From assembly GCA_964500505.1 (NCBI GenBank), contig CAZCNN010000004.1, forward strand, positions 1 to 58,266: a stretch of DNA of 58,266 nt, given 5' to 3'. Of the stretch, positions 1 through 58,266 are shown in pieces; positions within the stretch are counted from its first letter, which is position 1; the number at the start of each line of letters is the position of its first letter. A program made the position numbers and the translations under genes. The notes under the pieces are model-generated. The model worked only from the letters and a program-made list of their open reading frames with translations, did no database searches and was not told the origin of the DNA. This stretch comes from an uncultured Bdellovibrionales bacterium (lineage in GTDB: Bacteria > Patescibacteriota > Minisyncoccia > Moranbacterales > UBA1568).

Positions 1-46
1 GCAATCCCTTTGGCTCCTGCCATTTGGTGGGAGCAGGGGATTGTTG
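1..46 (+). repeat. Nested GC-rich hairpin directly 5' of the tRNA-Pro fragment; member of the tRNA-flanking hairpin family. Truncated by the window edge.
   Basis: GCAATCCC (1-8) pairs with GGGATTG (36-42). It encloses CTCCTGCC-ATTT-GGTGGGAG (13-32). Contains the CAGGGGATT core. Confidence 0.4.
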
Positions 47-50
47 CTTT

Positions 51-101
51 CGGGGCATAGTATAGTGGTAGTACGAGTGGTTTGGGACCATTTAGTCTCG
101 G
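51..101 (+). pseudogene. tRNA-Pro(UGG) 5' fragment (acceptor 5' strand, D arm, anticodon arm, T-stem 5' strand); no 3' acceptor strand
   Basis: Positions 49-101 are identical to 242-294 of the intact tRNA-Pro. The match ends after CTCGG at the start of the T-loop. Downstream sequence cannot pair with CGGGGCA. Confidence 0.75.
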
Positions 102-148
102 GTTCCCCGCCTGCAACGCTTATGCGTAGCATTGCGGGCAGGGATTCC
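101..148 (+). repeat. GGTTCC-[hairpin]-CAGGGATT module occupying the T-loop position of the tRNA-Pro fragment
   Basis: Hairpin CCCGC-C-TGC-A-ACGC-TTAT-GCGT-A-GCA-TT-GCGGG (about 12 bp). 43 of 46 nt are identical to 58022-58067. Confidence 0.7.
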
Positions 149-243
149 GATACGGGTGTAGTTAGAGATAACAGCGAGTGACTTGTAATGAGACCATTTA
201 TGGTCCCTGGTAGGGTTCATTCAATAGAGCAGATTTCACAATT

Positions 244-314
244 CGGGGCATAGTATAGTGGTAGTACGAGTGGTTTGGGACCATTTAGTCTCGGTTCGAT
301 TCCGAGTGCCCCGA
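244..314 (+). tRNA. tRNA-Pro (anticodon UGG)
   Basis: Cloverleaf read by hand: CGGGGCA/TGCCCCG acceptor with C1-G72 and A73, typical of bacterial tRNA-Pro. Anticodon loop TT-TGG-GA; T arm CTCGG-TTCGATT-CCGAG. No encoded CCA. Confidence 0.93.
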
Positions 315-339
315 CATTTAGTTGCAACGTGAAGACACC

Positions 340-1353
340 ATGAAAAAGGTAGTGACCATCGGAGGAGGGACGGGGAGTTTCACGCTTCTTTCTGGACTCA
401 AGAAATATCCGATTGAGCTCTCGGCTATCGTCTCGATGGCCGACGATGGTGGCTCGACTGGTATCCTTCGTGATGAACTCGGTGTCCTCCCGCCGGGAGA
501 TGTCCGTCAGTGCCTGGTGGCCCTCTCCGATACCCCGGACATGCTCCGGGAGCTTATGAATTACCGCTTTGCCGAAGGAGGCCTCGAGGGACACAGTTTC
601 GGCAATATCTTTCTTTCGGCCCTTGAGAAAATCACGGGCGACTTTGGCAAGGGGGTAGAGGAAGCGTCTCGGATACTGAATTTCCGGGGCGTGGTTATTC
701 CTGTCACTCTTTCTGATGTGCGCCTCTTTATGATCCTTGAGAATGGTGACGTCCTCTCGGGGGAAAATGAGATCAATGTGAGCAAGAAATTTGAAAAAGT
801 GGGAGTCAAAAAAGTTTTTCTTAAACCAGTTCCTAAAGCGAACCCCTTGGCGGTGAAGAAGATTCTCGAAGCCGACCTCGTCGTGATCGGTCCCGGCAAT
901 CACTACTGCTCTATTATCCCGAATCTCTTGGTCCCGGGTATCGCCGAGGCTCTCCGGAAAACCAAGGCCAAAATCGTGTACAACTGTAACCTCATTAGCA
1001 AGCGAGGTCAGACAGATCAGTTTTCTTTGGAGGACTATATTCGTGAAGTGAATAGCTATATTGGAGCCAAGCGGATAGATTTTGTGACGTATAACAGTAA
1101 GAAGCCTGGAGCACGTTTGCTAGAGCGCTACCGTTCTGAAGGTACGCTCGTGCCGTTTCAGAAGAATACCAAGAGGAATTATCGCGTTATTCAGGCAGAC
1201 CTCCTATCGAGTGAAAAGGTGATACGGAAAGCTGAGGACAAAATCGCGTATACGCGTGCCTTTATTCGTCATGACCCAGAGAAATTGGCTCGCGTTCTCG
1301 TGATGCTCCTTGAGCTTGAGGGGTACGAGAGTATCTTGAAGGATATCGTGTAG
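340..1353 (+). CDS. YvcK/CofD-family protein (UPF0052, gluconeogenesis factor-like)
   Basis: N-terminus KKVVTIGGGTGSFTLLSGLK, then MADDGGSTGILRDELGVLPPGDVRQC and VVIGPGNHYCSIIPNLLVPGI. ATG at 340 preferred over the in-frame TTG at 322. Confidence 0.85.
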   Translation: MKKVVTIGGGTGSFTLLSGLKKYPIELSAIVSMADDGGSTGILRDELGVLPPGDVRQCLVALSDTPDMLRELMNYRFAEGGLEGHSFGNIFLSALEKITGDFGKGVEEASRILNFRGVVIPVTLSDVRLFMILENGDVLSGENEINVSKKFEKVGVKKVFLKPVPKANPLAVKKILEADLVVIGPGNHYCSIIPNLLVPGIAEALRKTKAKIVYNCNLISKRGQTDQFSLEDYIREVNSYIGAKRIDFVTYNSKKPGARLLERYRSEGTLVPFQKNTKRNYRVIQADLLSSEKVIRKAEDKIAYTRAFIRHDPEKLARVLVMLLELEGYESILKDIV

Positions 1354-2818: not shown

Positions 2819-3096
2819 TTTATGGGTGAGGACTAGAAAACTTTCCCTTTTCATTTCCACAGATGCCACCGAACATCCCTGACTCGTTCTGCCGAACAGG
2901 GAGCTCACTGGTCGAGACCGTCCCTACTCACTCGACTGTTACCGGCTCACTCATCACGGATGCCTGCCCGCCTTCGGAGGGTTACCGTTTGACATCCGAC
3001 GGAAAGAAAAGGAAAAGTGTTTCCATGAAACTAACTCGCAGATTCTCCCTCCCAAGAATCCTCTCGGGCGAATTTTGAGCCGAAAGTTTACCCGCC

Positions 3097-3124: not shown

Positions 3125-3167
3125 AAAAAGTTTCGGATCAAACTTCAACAAAAATCTCGCTGGCCTG

Positions 3168-3190
3168 CCTGCCGGTAGGCAGGGATTTTT
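3168..3190 (+). terminator. Terminator-like hairpin CCTGCC-GGTA-GGCAGG followed by GATTTTT
   Basis: Perfect 6-bp stem. The 18-mer at 3163-3180 is the exact reverse complement of 10501-10518. Confidence 0.4.
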
Positions 3191-3287
3191 GTGGCCAGGG
3201 AGGGTTGCTTGGGAGTGGAGAATACCTAGAGGGGAATATTGAGAGCACGCCATCTCATCTCATACCGTGTATAATAGAGATACACTT

Positions 3288-4538
3288 ATGCTCCCTCTCT
3301 ATTATCGACAAAATCATCGTTTGTTTACCAGAAACCTCTTGTTTCTCGGTTTTGGGGCGCTCGTTATTTTGACTCTCTTGTATTTCTTTGTCTTTCGCAC
3401 GACACCTGAAGCGGAGGAAGAAGTAGCACCGCTCCCCGAGAATACCTCGACCCTTTCTGATTGGGTGGATGAGCAACCGATGCCGAGTGATGAGGCCGAG
3501 CGCCCGCCATCAGTCAAAGAAAAAGAGTATCCGGTCTTACCACCGCCTCCGCCACCCATCATGGCCAAGATGAAGACGCGCGGCTGTGTGGCTGACGGCT
3601 TTCTCTCCGGGTACGGTGGAGATACCAATAGCTCTATCGCCCTTATCAACCGCTCGCAGTGCTACTATCTCCACCGAGCATTAGAGACTTGGCTCGACCC
3701 ACCGGACTTTGGAGAAGCCCGAGAGATTATGGAGCGGGTGACCAAACCCAATACCGTCTATGGGATGTTTATCGCGGAAGCAATCGATACCAAAGCCAAT
3801 TACTACTATCCTGACGAAAAACGAGACTTTGACTTCGGCGAAATGTGTCGTGTAGGAAGCAAGAACTATTGGGGGGAGCATACCTGCAAGCCCTCACTTG
3901 AGCGGCCTGAGTATCGCAAGTATGTCGAGTACATCACCGATGAGGCGATGAATATGGGTATTCAGAGCTTTCTTTTTGGGCAAGTGTTCTATCAGGACAG
4001 TGCCGACCATGAGTCGAGCCGCATGCCGGAAATTATACGCCATATGCGGGATCATGCGGAGTACCTCGGACTCGAGATTATGATCGGGGCCCAGACCAAC
4101 GATATTGAAGATGAGGCCTATCTCCGACTCTTTGACTATATCGAGGGTGGTGTGGGGCTACAGCGAGACGGGAGCGTCGAGAGTGGTGCTTGCTTCTCTC
4201 GCTGGTGGAAGGAGCCAGGGGACTGGTGCTGGGCTCTCCTCTGGCACCCACGTTTTGCGGACAAGGCCAACAACGTCCTGGTGCACTTTGACTGGAGTGG
4301 CAAGCTCGGTGACGATATGAGTGTCTTTACCAGGATGAGTGAGAATGAGCGAGCCGTCACGCTCAAGCGCCTCCATGGCTACTTCACTGGTCGTAATGTC
4401 GGATTCCTTATGCCGATGCTCGCGACACTCCACAAAGACAATGGGGGCTGTAGTGGCCCCAAGAAGCGATTTTATTCGGCCAGTCGCAAGTACACTTGTC
4501 AGGATGAGGAAGTGATCAATGAGATACTGGGGAAATGA
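3288..4538 (+). CDS. Hypothetical membrane-anchored protein (N-terminal TM, Pro-rich linker, about 330-aa extracytoplasmic domain)
   Basis: Long ORF with local codon usage. TM segment LLFLGFGALVILTLLYFFVF, then PPPPPPI. ATG 3288 lies 13 nt after TATAAT (3270-3275). No family recognised. Confidence 0.6.
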   Translation: MLPLYYRQNHRLFTRNLLFLGFGALVILTLLYFFVFRTTPEAEEEVAPLPENTSTLSDWVDEQPMPSDEAERPPSVKEKEYPVLPPPPPPIMAKMKTRGCVADGFLSGYGGDTNSSIALINRSQCYYLHRALETWLDPPDFGEAREIMERVTKPNTVYGMFIAEAIDTKANYYYPDEKRDFDFGEMCRVGSKNYWGEHTCKPSLERPEYRKYVEYITDEAMNMGIQSFLFGQVFYQDSADHESSRMPEIIRHMRDHAEYLGLEIMIGAQTNDIEDEAYLRLFDYIEGGVGLQRDGSVESGACFSRWWKEPGDWCWALLWHPRFADKANNVLVHFDWSGKLGDDMSVFTRMSENERAVTLKRLHGYFTGRNVGFLMPMLATLHKDNGGCSGPKKRFYSASRKYTCQDEEVINEILGK

Positions 4539-10367: not shown

Positions 10368-10474
10368 GAGAATATAAAAAAAATTAGACCTTGCTAGTAT
10401 ACCAGAAAAGCCTTCCTCCCGCACCCTTTACGAGCAGAGCCAAAATACGTTACAATGGCCCTGCTGAGAAAAAA

Positions 10475-10542
10475 GCGGGTATAGTATAGTGGTAATACCC
10501 GCCTACCGGCAGGCAGGCGTGACCCCACCAGACCGTTAGAAC
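10475..10542 (+). repeat. tRNA-like 5' element plus CCTACCGGCAGG palindrome in the tRNA-Gly(CCC) leader
   Basis: GCGGGTA-TA-GTAT-AGTGGTA-ATAC mimics an acceptor strand and D arm, but also folds as an 8-bp hairpin GCGGGTAT/ATACCCGC. No anticodon or T arm follows. Confidence 0.55.
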
Positions 10543-10613: not shown

Positions 10614-10616
10614 CAA

Positions 10617-10675
10617 ATTGCGGTCAGGCAGGCAGGGATTTTTACCTGTCCTTTGGCGGGCTCTTTACCCGCTCA
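10617..10675 (+). repeat. tRNA-Gly(CCC) trailer element homologous to 2738-2782
   Basis: ATTGCGGTCAGG is shared with 58052-58063. GGCAGG-GATTTTTA-CCTGTC parallels GGGCGGG-GATTTTTA-CCCGTCC with an A-T to G-C compensatory change. It ends TACCCGC-TCA, complementary to GCGGGTA at 10475. Confidence 0.6.
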
Positions 10676-10680
10676 AATAA

Positions 10681-30801: not shown

Positions 30802-30819
30802 TCAGCTATTTTTTACTTG

Positions 30820-30934
30820 ACCCCGCACCTTTTCTTGAGAGGAGTAGTCTTCATGTACCGTGCGTGAGCCGATAGGCGACTCCGTCTTACAAATTCACCC
30901 TTACCACCGGTCGTTATGGGAAAAGGTGCGGGGT
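30820..30934. repeat. 115-nt inverted repeat (15-bp perfect arms, 85-nt loop)
   Basis: ACCCCGCACCTTTTC (30820-30834) and GAAAAGGTGCGGGGT (30920-30934). The right arm abuts the -35 box of the next promoter. Confidence 0.6.
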
Positions 30935-30999
30935 TGACAAAAAGGCTGAAAAGTGCTAATTTGCGGGCAACGAGGAAGGAGGGGTAACACCCCTTTTTT
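30934..30999 (+). promoter_or_regulatory. Putative promoter TTGACA-17-TAATTT followed by a hairpin and T6
   Basis: TTGACA at 30934-30939 and TAATTT at 30957-30962. GGGGT-AAC-ACCCC (30981-30993) followed by TTTTTT. Confidence 0.4.
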
Positions 31000-33220: not shown

Positions 33221-36200
33221 ATGAGCGTGTCTCGATGGTCGTTGGGGATATTTTTGATAAGTACCCTTTTCTTTTTTGGGGTAACAGTTGTGCGGGCGGA
33301 TGAGGAGATGGTGACCACTCCTTTTGACGGTGCGGACCTGAGCTATGCCTCACTCTCAGTGGTGGATACTCGACTTGACTCTGTCGAGGGGAATCCAAAC
33401 CTGGTGCTCTCAGCGAAATTACAGAATACCGGGAGCGATACACGGACCTTTCGGGCCAGTGTCGAATTTCGAGGCCGTGCCGAGTCGAACAAAGATGACC
33501 TGGCGCGAGTGTATGGACTTGAGACGTATACTATTCCTGCCCAAGGAGAACAGAACATCGCATTTTCTGTTGAGCGATCGCGAGCGCTCTCAGGTGCGTA
33601 TGGCACTTATCTCGTCATTGGTGATGAAAAGGGGAATATCGTATCACAGACCAGTCTCGGGGAGAAGCGTTTTGATGCCACGGAAAAGGTAGTAGTGGAA
33701 CGTTGCGCCTTCGGTCCAAGTGATGGAGACAATGGCGTTATCCTGCCTGCCGAAAGTCAGCATGCAGAAATCATGGTGTCTTGTGATGTTTCAGTGAAAA
33801 ATGGCAGTCTCGAGAATGCAACTCTCGTGAACCGAGCTATTGACTCGAGGACGGCTCTCCCTGTGGTGCTGAGTGACAAGGCTATCACGCTATCTTCGGT
33901 GGCAGTACCAGTGCGGTACACGGTACCAGTCTCAGTAGAACCGGGACAGTATCAGTTGGAGGTGGTTGTGGTCAATGCACGGGGTGAGGAGGTGAGTATC
34001 CCAGCTCGGACCTCTCTCCGCGTATATGGGAATGGCGGAAAGATATTAGGCTTGAGCGAACTGAAAAGAGAGGGTACTCAGTCAGTAGCACTTACCGTTG
34101 GAGCAGCGGTCGAGCTCGCTGATGGTGCGGAGTATACCCTGTCATACGCTCTCCTCTCGGGCGGAGTAGCCTGTGGTGAGCCAGTCTCGGTCATGGTCCA
34201 GAATACCAACCTCAAAGAGGCTGTACTCCAAGTAACCAAGAATTGTGACGCGCCAGTCCTCTCGGCAACCCTCCTCTCGGACGGGAGTACGGTGCTCGAC
34301 CAGGCTGAGAAGTCCATCAGTCCCGTAACTGGTATGTCTACATCTATGGTGAAAACCGCGTTCTCTGATGGTATCTTGACCCGGCTCCCTTGGATAATCG
34401 TCGCTGTCCTCGGGATGTTCGCTGGTTACTTTATTTGGCAGAAGGAGCGACTCCGTCGGATGACGCCAGTATGGGCACTGGCCCTCGTCTCAGTATTCTT
34501 CGGATACTCTGTGGATCGGGTGCAAGCTGCAGGGACAGGGTTTACACTCCTCTGTGATGGAGCAGTTCAGACTTGTCCTTTTGATGCGACTGTAGACTAT
34601 GGTTTTTGGACTGACAAGGATGTGTATACGCCTGGTGAAACAGTGAGGATCACTATGAGTATTGCGAGTGAAGATCATCCAGTACCGACAAACAATCTTT
34701 GTCCCGATGTTCGGATGCGTATTAATAACGGGAACAATAGTTCAGACTTGGTATCTAGTTGCTATTCTGCGAATCAGTTTACGGCAGGTCTTGAACTGAA
34801 TCTGACCCAGACCGCCCCGATGACGACAGGAGTTTTCACTATTGGAGTGACGGTAGGACAGAACGGCTATACTTCACCTGCACCACGAACTATGTCAGGT
34901 CTCAGTGTCGCGGTAGCACCAACCCCGACGGCTTCACTCAATATTTCGCCAACGACTGCGGACTTTCCAACTGTTATAACCTACACACTCTCGTCGACGA
35001 ATGCGCAAAGTTGTGAAGTAGTCCAGATATCCCCTACGACACAGACATTTGTTGATAAAAGTACCAATACCACAGGGACCACTATCCAAAGCCAGGTAGC
35101 GGTAGGGTCATACCAGTTCCAGACCCGTTGTTGGTCGGGTACCAATGGGACAGGTAATGTAAGCTCGACTGATACAGATAGTCTCACGATCAATACACCG
35201 CCAGCTCAGCCAACGGCCACTTTTACAAGTCTTCCGGCCTGTTCTATCGATGATGGACGATCAGGTTGCAATACGACACTTTACTGGACATCATCCAATG
35301 TGACGACGGTAGTACTTACTAACTGTGCAGATGTCCTATTGACTTCTACCGGTTCTGGTCCGCGTTCATACTCACCAGTGTATGTACCCTATAATAGTGG
35401 TTGTTATCGGTTGCATGATGGGACGCGAACCGGACCAATTCTCGCGCAAGGGAATGCGAGTGCGACCTGCTCTGGTCAGCCTTGGCAGGCCAGTACTGGG
35501 ACCTGCGGCAATGTAAATGCTATCTGTGGTACGGCTGATGGGACTTTGGTCCCGGGGGGTATCTTTGATTTGTCAGTATATCCACAAATATGCCAGGCAG
35601 GAGATCCTGGGAGTCCAGACAGTTACCTGTCGACCGATACGATTAGCAATGACAAGAAGACATTTAGCACGGGAAGCTCCAATGCCTTTTTTCTGGGAAC
35701 AGTCTGGCGGTGCGCCGGACTCGGGAATGGATACCATCAGTACTGTCGATTGTATCGAGAACCACTGTGTGGGAGCGCTACTGGAGGATCATATTCTAGT
35801 CCGCCTACAGATCCAACCTCTGGACTAAAGCAGGGGTTGTGCCAAGTAGGGACACCGACAACCGTCCAGACAAATTCGAATACCTATACTTGGCAGTGCG
35901 ATAACCCTGGATCATCACCAGTCAGTTGCTCTGCGACGAGAACTGGCGGTGCAACTGCTCAGATCACGGCGCGAGTTGTGGTGGCCTCAAATGAGACAAG
36001 CTGGTGGAAGAAATTTATTTCGTTTGTTACTGGTCGTGATCATACTGCGCAAGCAACTGGACCAGATGCTAATATTACGACCAACGGGACAGCGGCTATT
36101 GATTGGACATCGAGCGGTACTCCCGATTGTACAATCTCCAGCCCAACTGGCCCCGGTCCATTTACCGGAACTACTGGATCACGAAATTTGTCAGGGGCAA

Positions 36201-37702
36201 CTCTTGGAGTTGGCACTCATACCTTCAATCTTAGTTGTTCAGGCGCACCTGCAGATTCTGTCAAAGTTATTGTCACGAGTGCTGGTGGTGGCGCGCCGAG
36301 TGGCCCTCCTGGGGATAGCGGTGGATTCTTCAATGCTAGTCCCGCAGCCTGTGGAACAGGGACAATCAACCTTTCATGGAACAGCGTCTCAGGTGCAACG
36401 AGTTATCAGCTCCGTGATGGGAGCACTCAGATATATAGTGGTGCCAGTACCTCCTACAGTCATACCGGACTCACTGCTGGTTCAGCCCATAGCTATACAG
36501 TTCGAGCCACCAACTCGAACGGATCATCAGGATGGTCATCGGTCCGCAACGCCAATGCTCCGAATGCATGTCCTCCTGGAGGATTCTCGGTCAATCTGAC
36601 TGCTAGTCCGGCCAATATCGTCAGCGGCTCGAGTACCCTCTCATGGACAACGGGCGGTAATCCGACCTGGTGTTGGGCGACTGGCGGTAACGAAGGTACC
36701 TGGAACAATACTTGGCAGTCTGTGTCTGGTGGTTCGCGTGTTGTCACGCCACCCGTGACTACTACCTACACGCTTGAGTGTGGTGACGCTTCGACATCAG
36801 TCTCGGATACGGCCACAGTAACCGTCGGAAGTGGCTTCACTTGTACTGGTTCTATGTCGAACCATGCGACAGTATACAGTGGCGACAGTACGGGTCTCTT
36901 AGTCGATACCCCTTATAGCTATTCAGCGACCAACACTGCACTCAAGTGTCAGTACGCGTGTGATCCGGGGTATACCTGGGATGGATCACAGTGTGCTGGC
37001 CCTTCGGTGACGCTCACGGCAAGTCCATCAACAATTGCCAGTGGCGACTCAAGCACTCTCACCTGGACACCCTCGAGTGGTGTGACATCGTGTTGGGCGA
37101 CCAATGGCACCGCTCCTTGGACCAATAGCTCTCGGAGCGCGAGTGGTGGTACTCAGGTTGTCTCACCGAGTGCGACTACTACCTATTCGATTGAATGTTG
37201 GAACGCAACTGGCGTGTCTACCGGAATCCGAAGTCAAACCATTACGGTAACTGGAGGCGCTCCCGCCGCGGTCAATGTCTGTCCTGGATCTGCCACGCTC
37301 GGTGTAGCGACCACGCAGCAGTTTAGTGCATACTATACCGCCGCGGGGGTCGCCTGGAATGGTTGTGGATCACCCAATGGTACCAATGTGACGAGTTCTG
37401 CTACGTGGTCTAGCTCCAATGCTTCTGTGGCAACGATGAATAATGGCCCCTCGAAGGGTCTCGCGACGGGTGTTGCTGTTGGGAGTGCAACCATGAGTGC
37501 GGTGTACAGCGGTCTTACCGCTAACGCCGGGGTCACTATCAGCTGTACCCCAACCAATACCTGTAACAGTGCTTCTTCACAGACGAGAGCCACAAGCATT
37601 TGTGCGGGAGACACTTTCAACATCAACGACGGTTGTGGTGGGACGCTCACATGCTCCGGTACCCGTGTCTGTGACTACAACTGGAAAGAGGTTGCTCCTT
37701 GA
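33221..37702 (+). CDS. Giant (1,493-aa) surface protein: signal peptide, about 360-aa domain, central TM hairpin, then a Cys/Thr/Ser-rich array of Ig-like modules, Fn3 and Big_2
   Basis: Signal LGIFLISTLFFFGVTVVRA. TM pair at about aa 388-432. Fn3 (SWNSVSGATSYQLRDGS...YTVRATNSNGSSGWS). Repeated modules (SVNLTASPANIVSGSSTLSWTT...TYTLEC and SVTLTASPSTIASGDSSTLTWTP...TYSIEC). Big_2-like C-terminal region (VNVCPGSATLGVATTQQFSAYY...ATWSSSNASVATM). Confidence 0.85.
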   Translation: MSVSRWSLGIFLISTLFFFGVTVVRADEEMVTTPFDGADLSYASLSVVDTRLDSVEGNPNLVLSAKLQNTGSDTRTFRASVEFRGRAESNKDDLARVYGLETYTIPAQGEQNIAFSVERSRALSGAYGTYLVIGDEKGNIVSQTSLGEKRFDATEKVVVERCAFGPSDGDNGVILPAESQHAEIMVSCDVSVKNGSLENATLVNRAIDSRTALPVVLSDKAITLSSVAVPVRYTVPVSVEPGQYQLEVVVVNARGEEVSIPARTSLRVYGNGGKILGLSELKREGTQSVALTVGAAVELADGAEYTLSYALLSGGVACGEPVSVMVQNTNLKEAVLQVTKNCDAPVLSATLLSDGSTVLDQAEKSISPVTGMSTSMVKTAFSDGILTRLPWIIVAVLGMFAGYFIWQKERLRRMTPVWALALVSVFFGYSVDRVQAAGTGFTLLCDGAVQTCPFDATVDYGFWTDKDVYTPGETVRITMSIASEDHPVPTNNLCPDVRMRINNGNNSSDLVSSCYSANQFTAGLELNLTQTAPMTTGVFTIGVTVGQNGYTSPAPRTMSGLSVAVAPTPTASLNISPTTADFPTVITYTLSSTNAQSCEVVQISPTTQTFVDKSTNTTGTTIQSQVAVGSYQFQTRCWSGTNGTGNVSSTDTDSLTINTPPAQPTATFTSLPACSIDDGRSGCNTTLYWTSSNVTTVVLTNCADVLLTSTGSGPRSYSPVYVPYNSGCYRLHDGTRTGPILAQGNASATCSGQPWQASTGTCGNVNAICGTADGTLVPGGIFDLSVYPQICQAGDPGSPDSYLSTDTISNDKKTFSTGSSNAFFLGTVWRCAGLGNGYHQYCRLYREPLCGSATGGSYSSPPTDPTSGLKQGLCQVGTPTTVQTNSNTYTWQCDNPGSSPVSCSATRTGGATAQITARVVVASNETSWWKKFISFVTGRDHTAQATGPDANITTNGTAAIDWTSSGTPDCTISSPTGPGPFTGTTGSRNLSGATLGVGTHTFNLSCSGAPADSVKVIVTSAGGGAPSGPPGDSGGFFNASPAACGTGTINLSWNSVSGATSYQLRDGSTQIYSGASTSYSHTGLTAGSAHSYTVRATNSNGSSGWSSVRNANAPNACPPGGFSVNLTASPANIVSGSSTLSWTTGGNPTWCWATGGNEGTWNNTWQSVSGGSRVVTPPVTTTYTLECGDASTSVSDTATVTVGSGFTCTGSMSNHATVYSGDSTGLLVDTPYSYSATNTALKCQYACDPGYTWDGSQCAGPSVTLTASPSTIASGDSSTLTWTPSSGVTSCWATNGTAPWTNSSRSASGGTQVVSPSATTTYSIECWNATGVSTGIRSQTITVTGGAPAAVNVCPGSATLGVATTQQFSAYYTAAGVAWNGCGSPNGTNVTSSATWSSSNASVATMNNGPSKGLATGVAVGSATMSAVYSGLTANAGVTISCTPTNTCNSASSQTRATSICAGDTFNINDGCGGTLTCSGTRVCDYNWKEVAP

Positions 37703-53121: not shown

Positions 53122-53164
53122 TGCTATGCTGGAGGCATCCTGCCTACCGGCAGGTAGGTATTTT
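53122..53164 (+). promoter_or_regulatory. TGCTATGCT -10-like box followed by overlapping palindromes CCTGCC-TACC-GGCAGG / CCTACC-GGCA-GGTAGG and a T-run, upstream of nrdR
   Basis: The 12-mer CCTACCGGCAGG (53143-53154) also occurs at 10503-10514, and as its reverse complement at 3168-3179. Confidence 0.4.
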
Positions 53165-53200
53165 AGGTTCGACATTCTAAATTCTACATTCTGAGATAAC

Positions 53201-57668: not shown

Positions 57669-57718
57669 GCGGGCTGTAGCCCGCCAGAGGTTTACCTGCC
57701 ATAGGCATGGCGGGTAAA
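57669..57718 (+). repeat. Two perfect hairpins forming the tRNA-Pro(GGG) leader
   Basis: GCGGGC-TGTA-GCCCGC, then TTTACCTGCCAT-AGGC-ATGGCGGGTAAA (12 bp), an inverted pair of the TTTACC(C/T)GCC core. Ends 5 nt before the tRNA. Confidence 0.65.
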
Positions 57719-57723
57719 TATAT

Positions 57724-57794: not shown

Positions 57795-57818
57795 CTACGT
57801 AGACAAAGGCTGGGGGAT

Positions 57819-57843
57819 AAAAAGCAATCTGCTTTGCTTTTTA
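57819..57843 (+). terminator. AT-rich terminator after tRNA-Pro(GGG)
   Basis: AAAGCAA-TCTGCT-TTGCTTT followed by a T-run. Confidence 0.55.
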
Positions 57844-57844
57844 T

Positions 57845-57985
57845 GGGCAACCCAAAGAACCGTCCTGGTTCCTTGGATAGGTTGCCCGGGAACTTGAGTT
57901 CGAGTTCCCCGACCACTTCTCGCTGTAGCGAGAAGTGAGATGGGCAGGCCCGCCAGAGGCGGACAGGGATTCTGCTTACCCCGAC
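57845..57985 (+). repeat. Array of four consecutive near-perfect hairpins containing T-arm-like and GGTTCC/CAGGGATT cores
   Basis: H1 57845-57887 (8 + 8 bp). H2 GGGAAC-10nt-GTTCCC (57888-57909). H3 CACTTCTCGC-TGTA-GCGAGAAGTG (57914-57937). H4 CCGCC-AGA-GGCGG (57950-57962). The array then continues ACAGGGATTCTGCTTACCCC. Confidence 0.6.
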
Positions 57986-58021
57986 AATGACGATGAAAAA
58001 TTCCCCGGAGCATGAGGCCTA

Positions 58022-58074
58022 GGTTCCCCACTTGCAACGCTTATGCGTAGCATTGCGGTCAGGGATTTTTACCC
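58022..58074 (+). repeat. Second copy of the GGTTCC-hairpin-CAGGGATT module seen at 101-148
   Basis: 43 of 46 nt identical to 101-146. Continues TTTTTACCC as in the tRNA-Gly trailers. Confidence 0.7.
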
Positions 58075-58266
58075 ATCAGGCAGTAGCCTATCACTTCGAG
58101 GGCTCGGCCGAAGACGTTGGGCCCGTGGCATTTGTCCGGGGTGACCGCGTGGTGTTTCACTCGAGTGTCCCACAGGGCATCGTCACCCAGTTCGGCGTCG
58201 ATGAGGAGCCACTCATTGTCCTCGAATACGTCGAGTCGGCTGCGACTACCCTTGTGTGTCGCGACC
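58059..58266 (-). CDS. 3' end of a GC-rich ORF running off the window (hypothetical)
   Basis: Hand translation of the minus strand gives ...WLLIDAELGDDALWDTRVKHHAVTPDKCHGPNVFGRALEVIGYCLMGKNP-stop (stop codon is the complement of 58059-58061). About 63% GC on one sampled line. Not in the supplied ORF track because it has no start codon in the window. Confidence 0.35.
   Translation of the reverse strand, partial: VATHKGSRSRLDVFEDNEWLLIDAELGDDALWDTRVKHHAVTPDKCHGPNVFGRALEVIGYCLMGKNP

Follow-up and report, generated by a model that had tools for sequence, protein, structure and literature searches.

The element considered here is a partial copy of a tRNA-Pro(UGG) gene near the left end of a 58,266-nucleotide stretch of DNA (contig CAZCNN010000004.1 of assembly GCA_964500505.1, forward strand; hereafter the window), which is core chromosome of Candidatus Moranbacteria, part of the Candidate Phyla Radiation (CPR)/Patescibacteria. 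From left to right the locus holds a terminator-like hairpin, two damaged tRNA-Pro copies that we call unit A and unit B, one intact tRNA-Pro(UGG) gene and cofD, with coordinates collected in Table 1. A first-pass annotation of this DNA had offered two explanations for the upstream copy: the scar of a very small element that carried its own tRNA 5′ part, or a tRNA-derived structured RNA. As described below, the upstream half tRNA instead looks like a single member of a highly variable tract made up of dead tRNA-Pro(UGG) copies, lying between the HU terminator and the single working gene, and is most likely non-functional itself.

A repeat search shows that positions 49-101 and 242-294 are identical over 53 nt (100% identity, spacing 193), exactly as the first-pass annotation had stated, and an exact repeat of this length within 58 kb far exceeds what chance could produce. 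The repeated segment consists of two leader nucleotides and tRNA positions 1-51, which cover the acceptor 5′ strand, the D arm, the anticodon arm and the 5′ strand of the T-stem. The downstream copy continues into the normal tRNA-Pro(UGG) that had been expected there, called by ARAGORN and scored well by Rfam. Unit A had been described as breaking off in the T-loop at a hairpin. A hairpin does interrupt it there, between C56 and G57, but the copy does not end at that point, since GATT-CCGAT resumes at 143-151; the T-stem 3′ strand within this segment has one mismatch. Unit A ends at the boundary between T-stem and acceptor, so that the acceptor 3′ strand is absent and no UGCCCCG follows the T-arm. 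The earlier statement that nothing pairs with the 5′ strand CGGGGCA proved slightly too strong, because the Rfam alignment pairs 51-57 with GUUCCCCG (102-109) in a stem of seven positions that skips the T-arm. Five of these are G-C pairs (CGGGG at 51-55 with CCCCG at 105-109), and they use the C-run of the hairpin itself. Among hairpin-bearing units from other contigs (numbered with an L throughout), inspection by eye finds about five acceptor-like pairs, including one G-U, in the L005 unit and no such pairing in the L033 unit. The stretch 51-152 has neither the seven-pair acceptor stem of a canonical tRNA nor a seven-nucleotide T-loop, and neither ARAGORN nor Rfam RF00005 at its gathering score detects it. 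The description of the upstream piece as a partial tRNA with a hairpin module in its T-loop is therefore borne out, and the partial tRNA is a non-functional one. A tRNA intron at 106-142, of either the archaeal bulge-helix-bulge kind or group I, was rejected: excision restores no complete tRNA, as the acceptor 3′ strand would still be missing, and group I introns are very much longer than 37 nt.

The interval of 140 nt that separates the repeats is not an inserted element; it contains the tail of unit A (143-151) and unit B. Unit B is recognised as a tRNA-Pro copy only by comparison with relatives. Its worn 5′ part, CGGGTGTAG...GAGTG (CGGGTGTAGTTAGAGATAACAGCGAGTG), resembles a second tRNA-Pro(UGG) allele, CGGGGTGTAG... 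(CGGGGTGTAGTATAGCGGTAGTACGAGTGG), which is intact in L005 and L087. The anticodon loop has expanded from UUUGGGA to ACTTGTAATGAGA (181-193), and the repeat search places a third copy resembling the anticodon arm at 189-200. After the loop come the anticodon 3′ strand CCATTT, a decayed remainder and a tail, ...GATTTCACAA, that leads into the real gene. On the left, the flank at 3-46 is shared exactly with L008, and homologous hairpins lie directly 3′ of the HU gene in L005, L011, L015, L019 and others.

Table 1. Features of the tRNA-Pro(UGG) locus and related sites in the window.
Feature	Position	Strand	Basis or remark
Terminator-like hairpin (AATCCC...GGGGATTGTTGC), left edge of locus	3-46	+	Follows the HU gene in relatives
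Pseudo-tRNA-Pro unit A, 5′ part	49-101	+	Exact copy of 242-294; Rfam score 28.8 against a cut-off of 29; no ARAGORN call
Unit A, extra G (102) and TTC (103-105), 5′ half of T-loop	102-105	+	Compared with 295-297 in the intact gene
Composite GC-rich palindromic hairpin hp1, 37 nt, between T-loop C56 and G57	106-142	+	Fold; second copy; L005 counterpart
Unit A, GATT-CCGAT-A: 3′ half of T-loop and 3′ strand of T-stem, one A fusing to unit B	143-152	+	Sequence reading
Pseudo-tRNA-Pro unit B, decayed	153-241	+	Sequence reading; homologues in relatives; alignment A1
Functional tRNA-Pro(UGG) gene, 72 nt	244-315	+	ARAGORN call; Rfam 64.3 bits
Spacer before the cofD start codon (340), 24 nt	316-339	+	Sequence
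CofD-family protein	340-1353		Domain search
Palindrome site	3164-3183		
Palindrome site	10498-10517		
Palindrome site	53139-53158		
Second copy of hairpin module, in T-loop of decayed tRNA-Pro(GGG) 3′ fragment	58022-58067	+	Repeat match; strains L293/L295

The hairpin hp1 has arms CCYGCCTGC / GCRGGCAGG and an extra small hairpin at its apex. These arms match the 20-nt palindrome CCTGCCTGCCGGCAGGCAGG, and L005 carries a plain palindrome of 19-20 nt at the same T-loop site; judged from its sequence, hp1 looks like the 20-nt palindrome with a small apical hairpin added. As DNA, 97-151 folds into one long hairpin in which hp1 stacks coaxially on the T-stem (-15.6 kcal/mol, z = -4.1). The suggestion that the hairpin module be tested as a repeated element was fruitful, as the 46 nt at 101-146 recur once more in the window with 93% identity over 46 nt. 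At the corresponding site L293 and L295 retain a recognisable tRNA-Pro(GGG) 3′ part, which reads GCATGTAGGCCGGGCTCC-hairpin-GATTTTTACCC. Several properties of hp1 are those of repetitive extragenic palindromic (REP) elements. It is a short GC-rich imperfect palindrome in non-coding DNA (106-142, z = -4.1), copies are numerous and dispersed (the composite twice in the window, the related 20-mer widely), and hairpin segments are present in some close strains and absent in others at three places: downstream of cofD, upstream of tRNA-Pro(GGG), and in the unit-A T-loop of the window compared with L005. Its ends read CCYGCC/GGCRGG, with no GTAG/CGTC tag, and no REP-associated tyrosine transposase (RAYT, HUH Y1) was seen among the 30 large open reading frames (ORFs) of the window that were scanned.

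Nine contigs encode a CofD identical to that of the window, with cofD differing at 0-23 of 1014 nt (2.3% or less), and their upstream regions show at least four layouts, including different working alleles. The window has unit A, unit B and the tRNA. L002, L004, L006 and L009 agree with it as far upstream as they reach (L002, L006 and L009 start inside the unit A hairpin and L004 inside the tRNA), and downstream of the tRNA they continue with a spacer of 28 nt and then a 3′ fragment (positions 38-73), whose T-loop holds the palindrome CTGTCTGCCGACAGGCAGG. L008 has two other 5′ remnants, then the tRNA, then the same 3′ fragment. In L005 and L007 the array opens with a 5′ copy that has a 38-nt hairpin in the D-loop and an expanded anticodon loop; there follow a unit-A homologue with a plain palindrome in the T-loop and the junction GATTCCGAT-A, the intact second-allele gene, an insert of about 100 nt and a 3′ fragment whose first base is exactly G57. 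No layout has a hairpin in the intact gene, and its allele begins CGGGGCA... in the window and CGGGGTG... in L005. Against this background, the 193-nt unit that had been taken for the scar of a very small element is a composite, one of many array layouts.

The two alleles differ in the acceptor (CGGGGCA/TGCCCCG in allele 1, CGGGGTG/CACCCCG in allele 2) and in the T-stem (CTCGG and CAGGG, respectively). Strains about 1% apart in cofD use different ones (window 244-315, L005 571-642; also L087 and L046), and the unused allele survives as a pseudo-copy. The spacer downstream of cofD also varies among near-identical strains (1400-1446 in the window compared with L001/L005/L007/L008 and L002/L004/L006/L009). 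In the window, 1400-1446 is a hairpin partly reverse-complementary to the module at 105-142, some strains are without it, and a third group has a different insert, roughly 150 nt long, with inverted repeats at its ends that resemble those of window 30811-30943.

A scan of a genome collection for CofD proteins yielded 80 loci, the closest of them in metagenome-assembled genomes of Candidatus Moranbacteria/Moraniibacteriota (CPR), and the order HU gene, terminator hairpin, tRNA-Pro(UGG), cofD is kept across related loci. By eye, some copy of the tRNA is visible at about 20 of 38 tRNA-Pro(UGG) loci; a strict automated test finds one at no fewer than 11, with a well-preserved upstream 5′ copy at 7/38 and a downstream copy of the 3′ end at 4/38. 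The first-pass annotation had suggested looking for relatives with empty sites, and six species (L014, L021, L022, L032, L037 and L087) indeed have no upstream copy and, by eye, no copy of any kind. Units of the B type (GAGTGG-ACTTG-N3-5-GYGA-CCATTT) occur in L011-L013, L015, L016, L017, L019, L028 and L050, and also in L005 and L008; L015 has three tandem near-identical copies and L019 has two. Units of the A type, with a T-loop hairpin and no acceptor 3′ strand, occur in L005, L024, L028, L033, L036 and L044, with two perfect tandem copies in L033 and a hairpin nested in a hairpin in L044. The junction CCGAT-A-CGGGG is common to the window, L005/L007 and the species L028. In L011, L015, L016 and L019 the units are preceded by a good sigma-70-like promoter (TTGACG-17-TACACT), suggesting that the units of these species are transcribed as a leader. 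None of the tRNA-Pro or tRNA-Gly genes called by ARAGORN in 43 CofD loci is long enough to hold a hairpin insert (72-76 nt).

Structure searches gave little beyond tRNA. RNAalifold found 0 consensus pairs in the 13 unit-B-type units of alignment A1, a set that does not include the unit-A type, and the fold of 49-243 is only mildly better than that of shuffled sequences (z = -2.5). Rfam, applied to the window and L293 at gathering and permissive thresholds, returned only tRNA and otherwise weak matches at chance level. A known RNA family other than tRNA was rejected on these grounds, the covariance-model matches being to tRNA only, and the structured-RNA explanation of the first-pass annotation found no backing. 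Tandem interspersed guide RNA (TIGR) arrays were also considered and dropped, as the units are tRNA-derived and irregular.

Similar fragments are not confined to tRNA-Pro(UGG): hairpin-bearing pieces lie beside all four tRNA genes of the window. Upstream of tRNA-Pro(GGG) is a mini-copy made of tRNA nucleotides 1-10 and a hairpin (57670-57714), within a 61-nt segment (57670-57723 region) that is missing in L287, L289 and L293-L295 when L286-L295 are compared. Fragments of the same nature appear on unrelated contigs. L186 has two tRNA-Ser 5′ copies with a palindrome in each D-loop, 5′ copies of tRNA-Asn and tRNA-His occur in L178 and L161, and 3′ copies of tRNA-Ser and tRNA-Ala occur in L189 and L159. 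In L159, tRNA-Ala(GGC) is followed by two pseudo-copies, each of which includes the gene's own terminator, an arrangement that is a true tandem duplication and not an attachment-site (att) core. Some further observations concern these loci. Both tRNA-Gly genes of the window are flanked by Gly-like fragments that bear hairpins in the T-loop and where the anticodon loop begins or ends (2631-2790, 10469-10520, 10615-10677); a 47-nt module, 83% identical between the two tRNA-Gly loci, ends by repeating the tRNA 3′ end (CGCTCAA); and L024, L030, L033, L036 and L038 have homologous pseudo-Gly units that contain the 20-nt palindrome. Downstream of tRNA-Pro(GGG), 57796-58075 is a chain of tRNA-like pieces with large T-loop inserts, and L293 has an extra unit at this gene with an uninterrupted T-loop.

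The hairpins belong to a family with the signature CCYGCC...GGCRGG. Around cofD, the 20-mer CCTGYCTRCCGRYAGGCAGG sits at T-, D- or anticodon-loop positions in about 20 of 26 locus matches, a set that is biased towards tRNA loci. The host copies in these cases are pseudo-tRNA-Pro and pseudo-tRNA-Gly. Both kinds are occupied in the T-loop; the other sites are the D-loop and, in Gly copies, the anticodon loop at its 5′ edge. When the search was not restricted to tRNA loci, the CCTGCCTGCCGGCAGGCAGG family appeared in at least 120 metagenome stretches (L090-L209) and in 76 viral contigs (L210-L285), on contigs whose GC content ranges from 0.31 to 0.71, and most of these copies are not near tRNA genes. 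The palindrome nests inside itself in 6 loci. Flanking inverted repeats of at least 8 bp accompany 8% of copies compared with 0.6% of controls, and flanking direct repeats of at least 10 nt accompany 8% compared with 0.6% in metagenome sequence and 5% compared with 0.7% in viral sequence. The idea that the palindrome always stands atop a larger hairpin was only partly borne out, this arrangement being enriched yet found in about 10% of copies.

Other features of the family are recorded here for completeness. In metagenome copies the palindrome often lies among short tandem or periodic repeats, and within the window tandem repeats of GAATGTAGAA adjoin family hairpins at 1361-1388 and 53168-53192 (reverse complement). 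A literature search for the palindrome string returned nothing. On the GC-rich viral contig L254, ARAGORN calls a 92-nt tRNA-Met at 2239-2330 with the palindrome in its variable loop, where it may be tolerated as a long extra arm; the related contig L213 (8570-8655) has the same tRNA-Met truncated just after the palindrome.

With respect to the wider setting, cofD is followed by genes for an NAD-binding oxidoreductase, tRNA-Gly, a P-type ATPase and a class II aminoacyl-tRNA synthetase, and farther along the window encodes RecA, FtsK, GyrB, EF-P, FtsA/FtsZ, HisRS, ComEC and NDK. The ORFs at 3267-4535 (423 aa) and 33221-37699 (1493 aa) have no Pfam match at E ≤ 1e-5. A promoter scan of 1-1600 predicted none before 1447 and hence none in 1-340, and the -10-like tails (TACAAT, TATAAT) are too near the tRNA start to serve tRNA-Pro. 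Thirteen other species have no spacer between tRNA and cofD: the tRNA-Pro 3′ end (…CCGA-C) runs straight into the ATG, with no leader or ribosome-binding site (2999-3003; L011, L012, L013, L015, L016, L019, L021, L022, L028, L033, L036, L044 and L087). This arrangement suggests that tRNA 3′ processing makes the cofD mRNA of those species leaderless. The clade of the window differs from them in having the 24-nt spacer, whose homology to the post-tRNA spacer of L002-type strains is suggestive by eye only.

Taken as a whole, we think it probable that the tract arose through local partial duplications of the tRNA gene, which were reshuffled by recombination, decayed and were colonised by small palindromes. 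We propose that the tRNA gene, with a few flanking bases, would be partially duplicated in tandem, presumably by replication slippage, template switching or unequal crossing-over; tandem duplicates themselves are observed. Unequal homologous recombination and gene conversion between the identical stretches of 30-53 nt that the copies have in common with the working gene could then add, delete, hybridise and refresh units. We infer this process from the layouts that differ among near-identical strains, and both RecA and ComEC are encoded in the window. One copy would stay intact while the others lose the acceptor 3′ strand and have the anticodon loop disrupted. The loops of the dead copies (T-loop at C56/G57, D-loop, 5′ edge of the anticodon loop) would next be colonised by CCYGCC...GGCRGG palindromes, as the observed insert sites, the dispersal of the family and the presence or absence of hairpin segments between strains suggest, and the hairpins may in turn stimulate further local duplication. 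In the window the outcome would be unit A, unit B as a decayed second allele, and the intact gene. The units are probably transcribed as a leader and discarded when RNase P cuts the real tRNA.

Several observations weigh against this proposal. Unit types persist in L015, L016, L019, L028 and L050, whose CofD proteins are 59-84% identical to that of the window, and the persistent features include a motif in the anticodon loop that is not of tRNA origin (ACTTG...GYGA) and CCGAT-A-CGGGG (in L028). As streamlined CPR genomes should lose neutral junk, such persistence may point to a degree of constraint, or to units being renewed again and again through gene conversion. The promoter found upstream of the units in several species implies that the units are transcribed. 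Some pseudo-copies (unit B of the window, L024, L013a) carry an allele other than that of the working gene, and these differing alleles could reflect imported DNA rather than local duplication. For the palindromes, flanks that match tRNA occur in only 9/109 copies, 3 of them self-nested, compared with 32/1090 control positions; the preference for tRNA-like sites is therefore modest, about two-fold when the 3 self-nested copies are excluded. Most palindrome copies are also without any flanking repeat.

Among the alternatives, we regard an integration scar as quite unlikely. Here a tyrosine-integrase element would have entered at the T-loop or anticodon loop of tRNA-Pro and later been mostly deleted, leaving attL and attR close together. 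The breakpoints lie in the T-loop and at the anticodon loop, which are the usual sublocations of integrase crossover in tRNA genes. Pseudo-copies can differ in allele from the working gene, L005, L046 and L040 have in common a conserved insert, about 100 nt long, after which comes a 3′ fragment with G57 as its exact first base, and an exact direct repeat of 53 nt, as expected of an att duplicate, is present. Integration into tRNA genes is a classic pattern, and many partial tRNA genes trace back to integrated elements (PMC9897764). However, the body of such an element is missing, with 140 nt between the repeats, and excision would be expected to remove the duplicate, not to leave it. No integrase was found in the 12 kb that follow the locus in the window, nor in the roughly 3 kb that precede it in relatives (occupied by the HU gene and the end of an RNase Y-like gene, the latter identified by eye), nor between copy and gene at some 40 related loci. 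The 30 large window ORFs scanned include no integrase or transposase and match core genes throughout, which upholds the first-pass remark that none is nearby. Across about 25 strains and species the interval from copy to gene is 60 to a few hundred nt at most. The duplicated part is usually the 5′ part, which integrases rarely duplicate. Identical units in tandem (L033, L015), like units that extend into a leader or terminator (L159, L178), fit duplication and not att cores. Three scans of 2.9 million viral contigs for a candidate attP, using the unit junction, the tRNA 5′ part and the T-loop hairpin, each gave 0 matches; plasmids and islands were not searched. An alternative we consider unlikely is that the units form a functional tRNA-like leader RNA, which would bind RNase P, prolyl-tRNA synthetase (ProRS), EF-P or a nuclease, or control processing or stability of the transcript. 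The promoter upstream of the units in L011, L015, L016 and L019 is consistent with such a role, as is the conservation across deep divergence of a GAGTGG-ACTTG-N-GYGA-CCATTT block with a tail ...TTT(N)CAAT (alignment A1), and the abutment of tRNA 3′ end and cofD ATG in 13 species implies that processing of the transcript matters. Copy number nevertheless ranges from 0 to 3, with several species having none, and unit content differs between near-identical strains. The conserved block consists largely of tRNA sequence, which gene conversion could keep intact, and the loop hairpins differ in sequence and size between close strains. The absence of any RNAalifold consensus pair in the 13 units and of any Rfam family besides tRNA, together with the mild z score of 49-243, also speaks against a dedicated structure.

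Replacement driven by a nuclease seems very doubtful. A free-standing homing-type GIY-YIG endonuclease encoded beside tRNA-Pro would cut the gene, and repair from sister or imported DNA would swap alleles and, if sloppy, leave partial duplicates. GIY-YIG ORFs do abut tRNA-Pro(UGG) in three species, downstream in L014 (about 2460-2795) and L029 (2684-3004) and upstream, overlapping the tRNA start, in L025 (2233-2502), with Pfam E values of 1e-14 to 1e-17. Two further species, L031 (about 2268-2350) and L035 (about 2948-2980), retain remnants of this cassette end (CCATTCGACTTC...GCTCATGGTC) after the tRNA, and alleles switch between near-identical strains whose relative, the window, encodes ComEC and RecA. 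There is also a precedent in phage T4, where SegB, a GIY-YIG endonuclease located in a tRNA gene cluster, drives the preferred inheritance of its region (PMC2330249). Set against this, neither the window nor its close strains show a GIY-YIG gene at the locus, and for the rest of the window the scan covered large ORFs; the proteins are only 89-110 aa long and have no recognisable DNA-binding domain; and the mechanism cannot account for the similar fragments beside genes for tRNA-Gly, Ser, Ala, His and Asn, which have no such ORF in view. It is scarcely credible that the 53-nt repeat is an assembly artefact produced by mis-joined reads of one tRNA gene. The contig is of metagenome type, and the junction between the HU terminator and unit A (about 40-60) is seen in the window alone among the assemblies in hand. 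Window positions 109-315 are nonetheless reproduced in independent Logan contigs from other samples (L002, L006 and L009), which break just where a repeat longer than the k-mer would break them. The homologous architecture of tRNA 5′ part, T-loop hairpin, GATTCCGAT-A and next tRNA is found in two NCBI assemblies (L005 and L007), and versions with other sequences exist in many species. Local duplication, reshuffling and decay is the explanation of the tract that we prefer.

A broader idea concerns the palindromes themselves, and we put it forward tentatively, as rather unlikely. They might be active, widespread mobile DNA that seeks out loops in CPR bacteria, other phyla and phages, with insertion coupled to a target duplication of variable length. 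If so, the coupled duplication would let palindromes enter essential single-copy genes, tRNA genes among them, with the host surviving, since one copy takes the hairpin while the other restores the gene, and tRNA genes would end up amid growing arrays of hairpin-bearing half copies.

Partial tRNA genes beside tRNA genes are mostly by-products of integration (van der Gulik et al. 2023, PMC9897764). The tract resembles such fragments and att duplicates in being a non-functional piece next to an intact gene, with an exact repeat and a score just short of a call (Rfam 28.8 against 29). It differs in that the 5′ part is repeated with no element or integrase between the copies, and in that the copies are tandem, multiple and hypervariable in near-identical strains, with hairpins in their loops. 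The palindromes are like REP elements and their paired hairpin form, REPIN, as these are characterised in PMC3116915 and PMC3733652, in being short, GC-rich, imperfect, extragenic, dispersed and present or absent between strains. Unlike them, they have CCYGCC/GGCRGG ends in place of GTAG/CGTC, no RAYT among the window ORFs scanned, copies within the loops of other hairpins, including those of the dead-tRNA cloverleaf, self-nesting, and the same 20-mer across GC contents and viruses. They can also be likened to the GC clusters and hairpin elements of mitochondria (yeast, PMC4478555; sponges, PMC2800124), which are intergenic GC-rich hairpins of compact genomes that vary between close strains, whereas ours lie in a bacterial chromosome and have a marked presence in the loops of tRNA-derived hairpins. 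As with archaeal non-canonical tRNA introns, extra sequence stands in the T-loop of a tRNA-like gene; unlike in those, removal of the insert gives no tRNA, the host is bacterial and the palindrome occupies many non-tRNA sites.

Rickettsia palindromic elements are another known kind of small extragenic palindrome. Closer in behaviour may be the cyanobacterial repeats of about 20-27 nt that Elhai et al. in 2008 reportedly described as apparently mobile, nesting and able to land in conserved RNA genes. The palindromes studied here are likewise small, apparently mobile and self-nesting; they belong to a different sequence family in a different phylum, and to our knowledge partial tRNA gene duplication has not been described with the cyanobacterial repeats. 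Literature searches on pseudo-tRNA in Patescibacteria, on tRNA fragments and on palindromes in tRNA genes turned up analogies only. We found no description that joins the four components, namely CPR pseudo-tRNA arrays, hairpins in cloverleaf loops, a shared self-nesting 20-mer and flanks enriched in direct repeats.

For annotation, the implication is that near-threshold tRNA matches beside real CPR tRNA genes are dead copies, which can also break assemblies, as the Logan contigs that end there illustrate. The pseudo-tRNA tracts would serve as very sensitive strain markers. Even in streamlined CPR genomes of about 1 Mb, every tRNA gene examined seems to be accompanied by a rapidly evolving tract of tRNA pseudo-copies. 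The 20-nt palindrome is found in contigs of 31-71% GC and in viral contigs, and its behaviour is that of a mobile or copy-pasted element with a preference for hairpin loops. If its spread is tied to duplication of the target, selfish DNA would have a previously undescribed means of living alongside essential genes.

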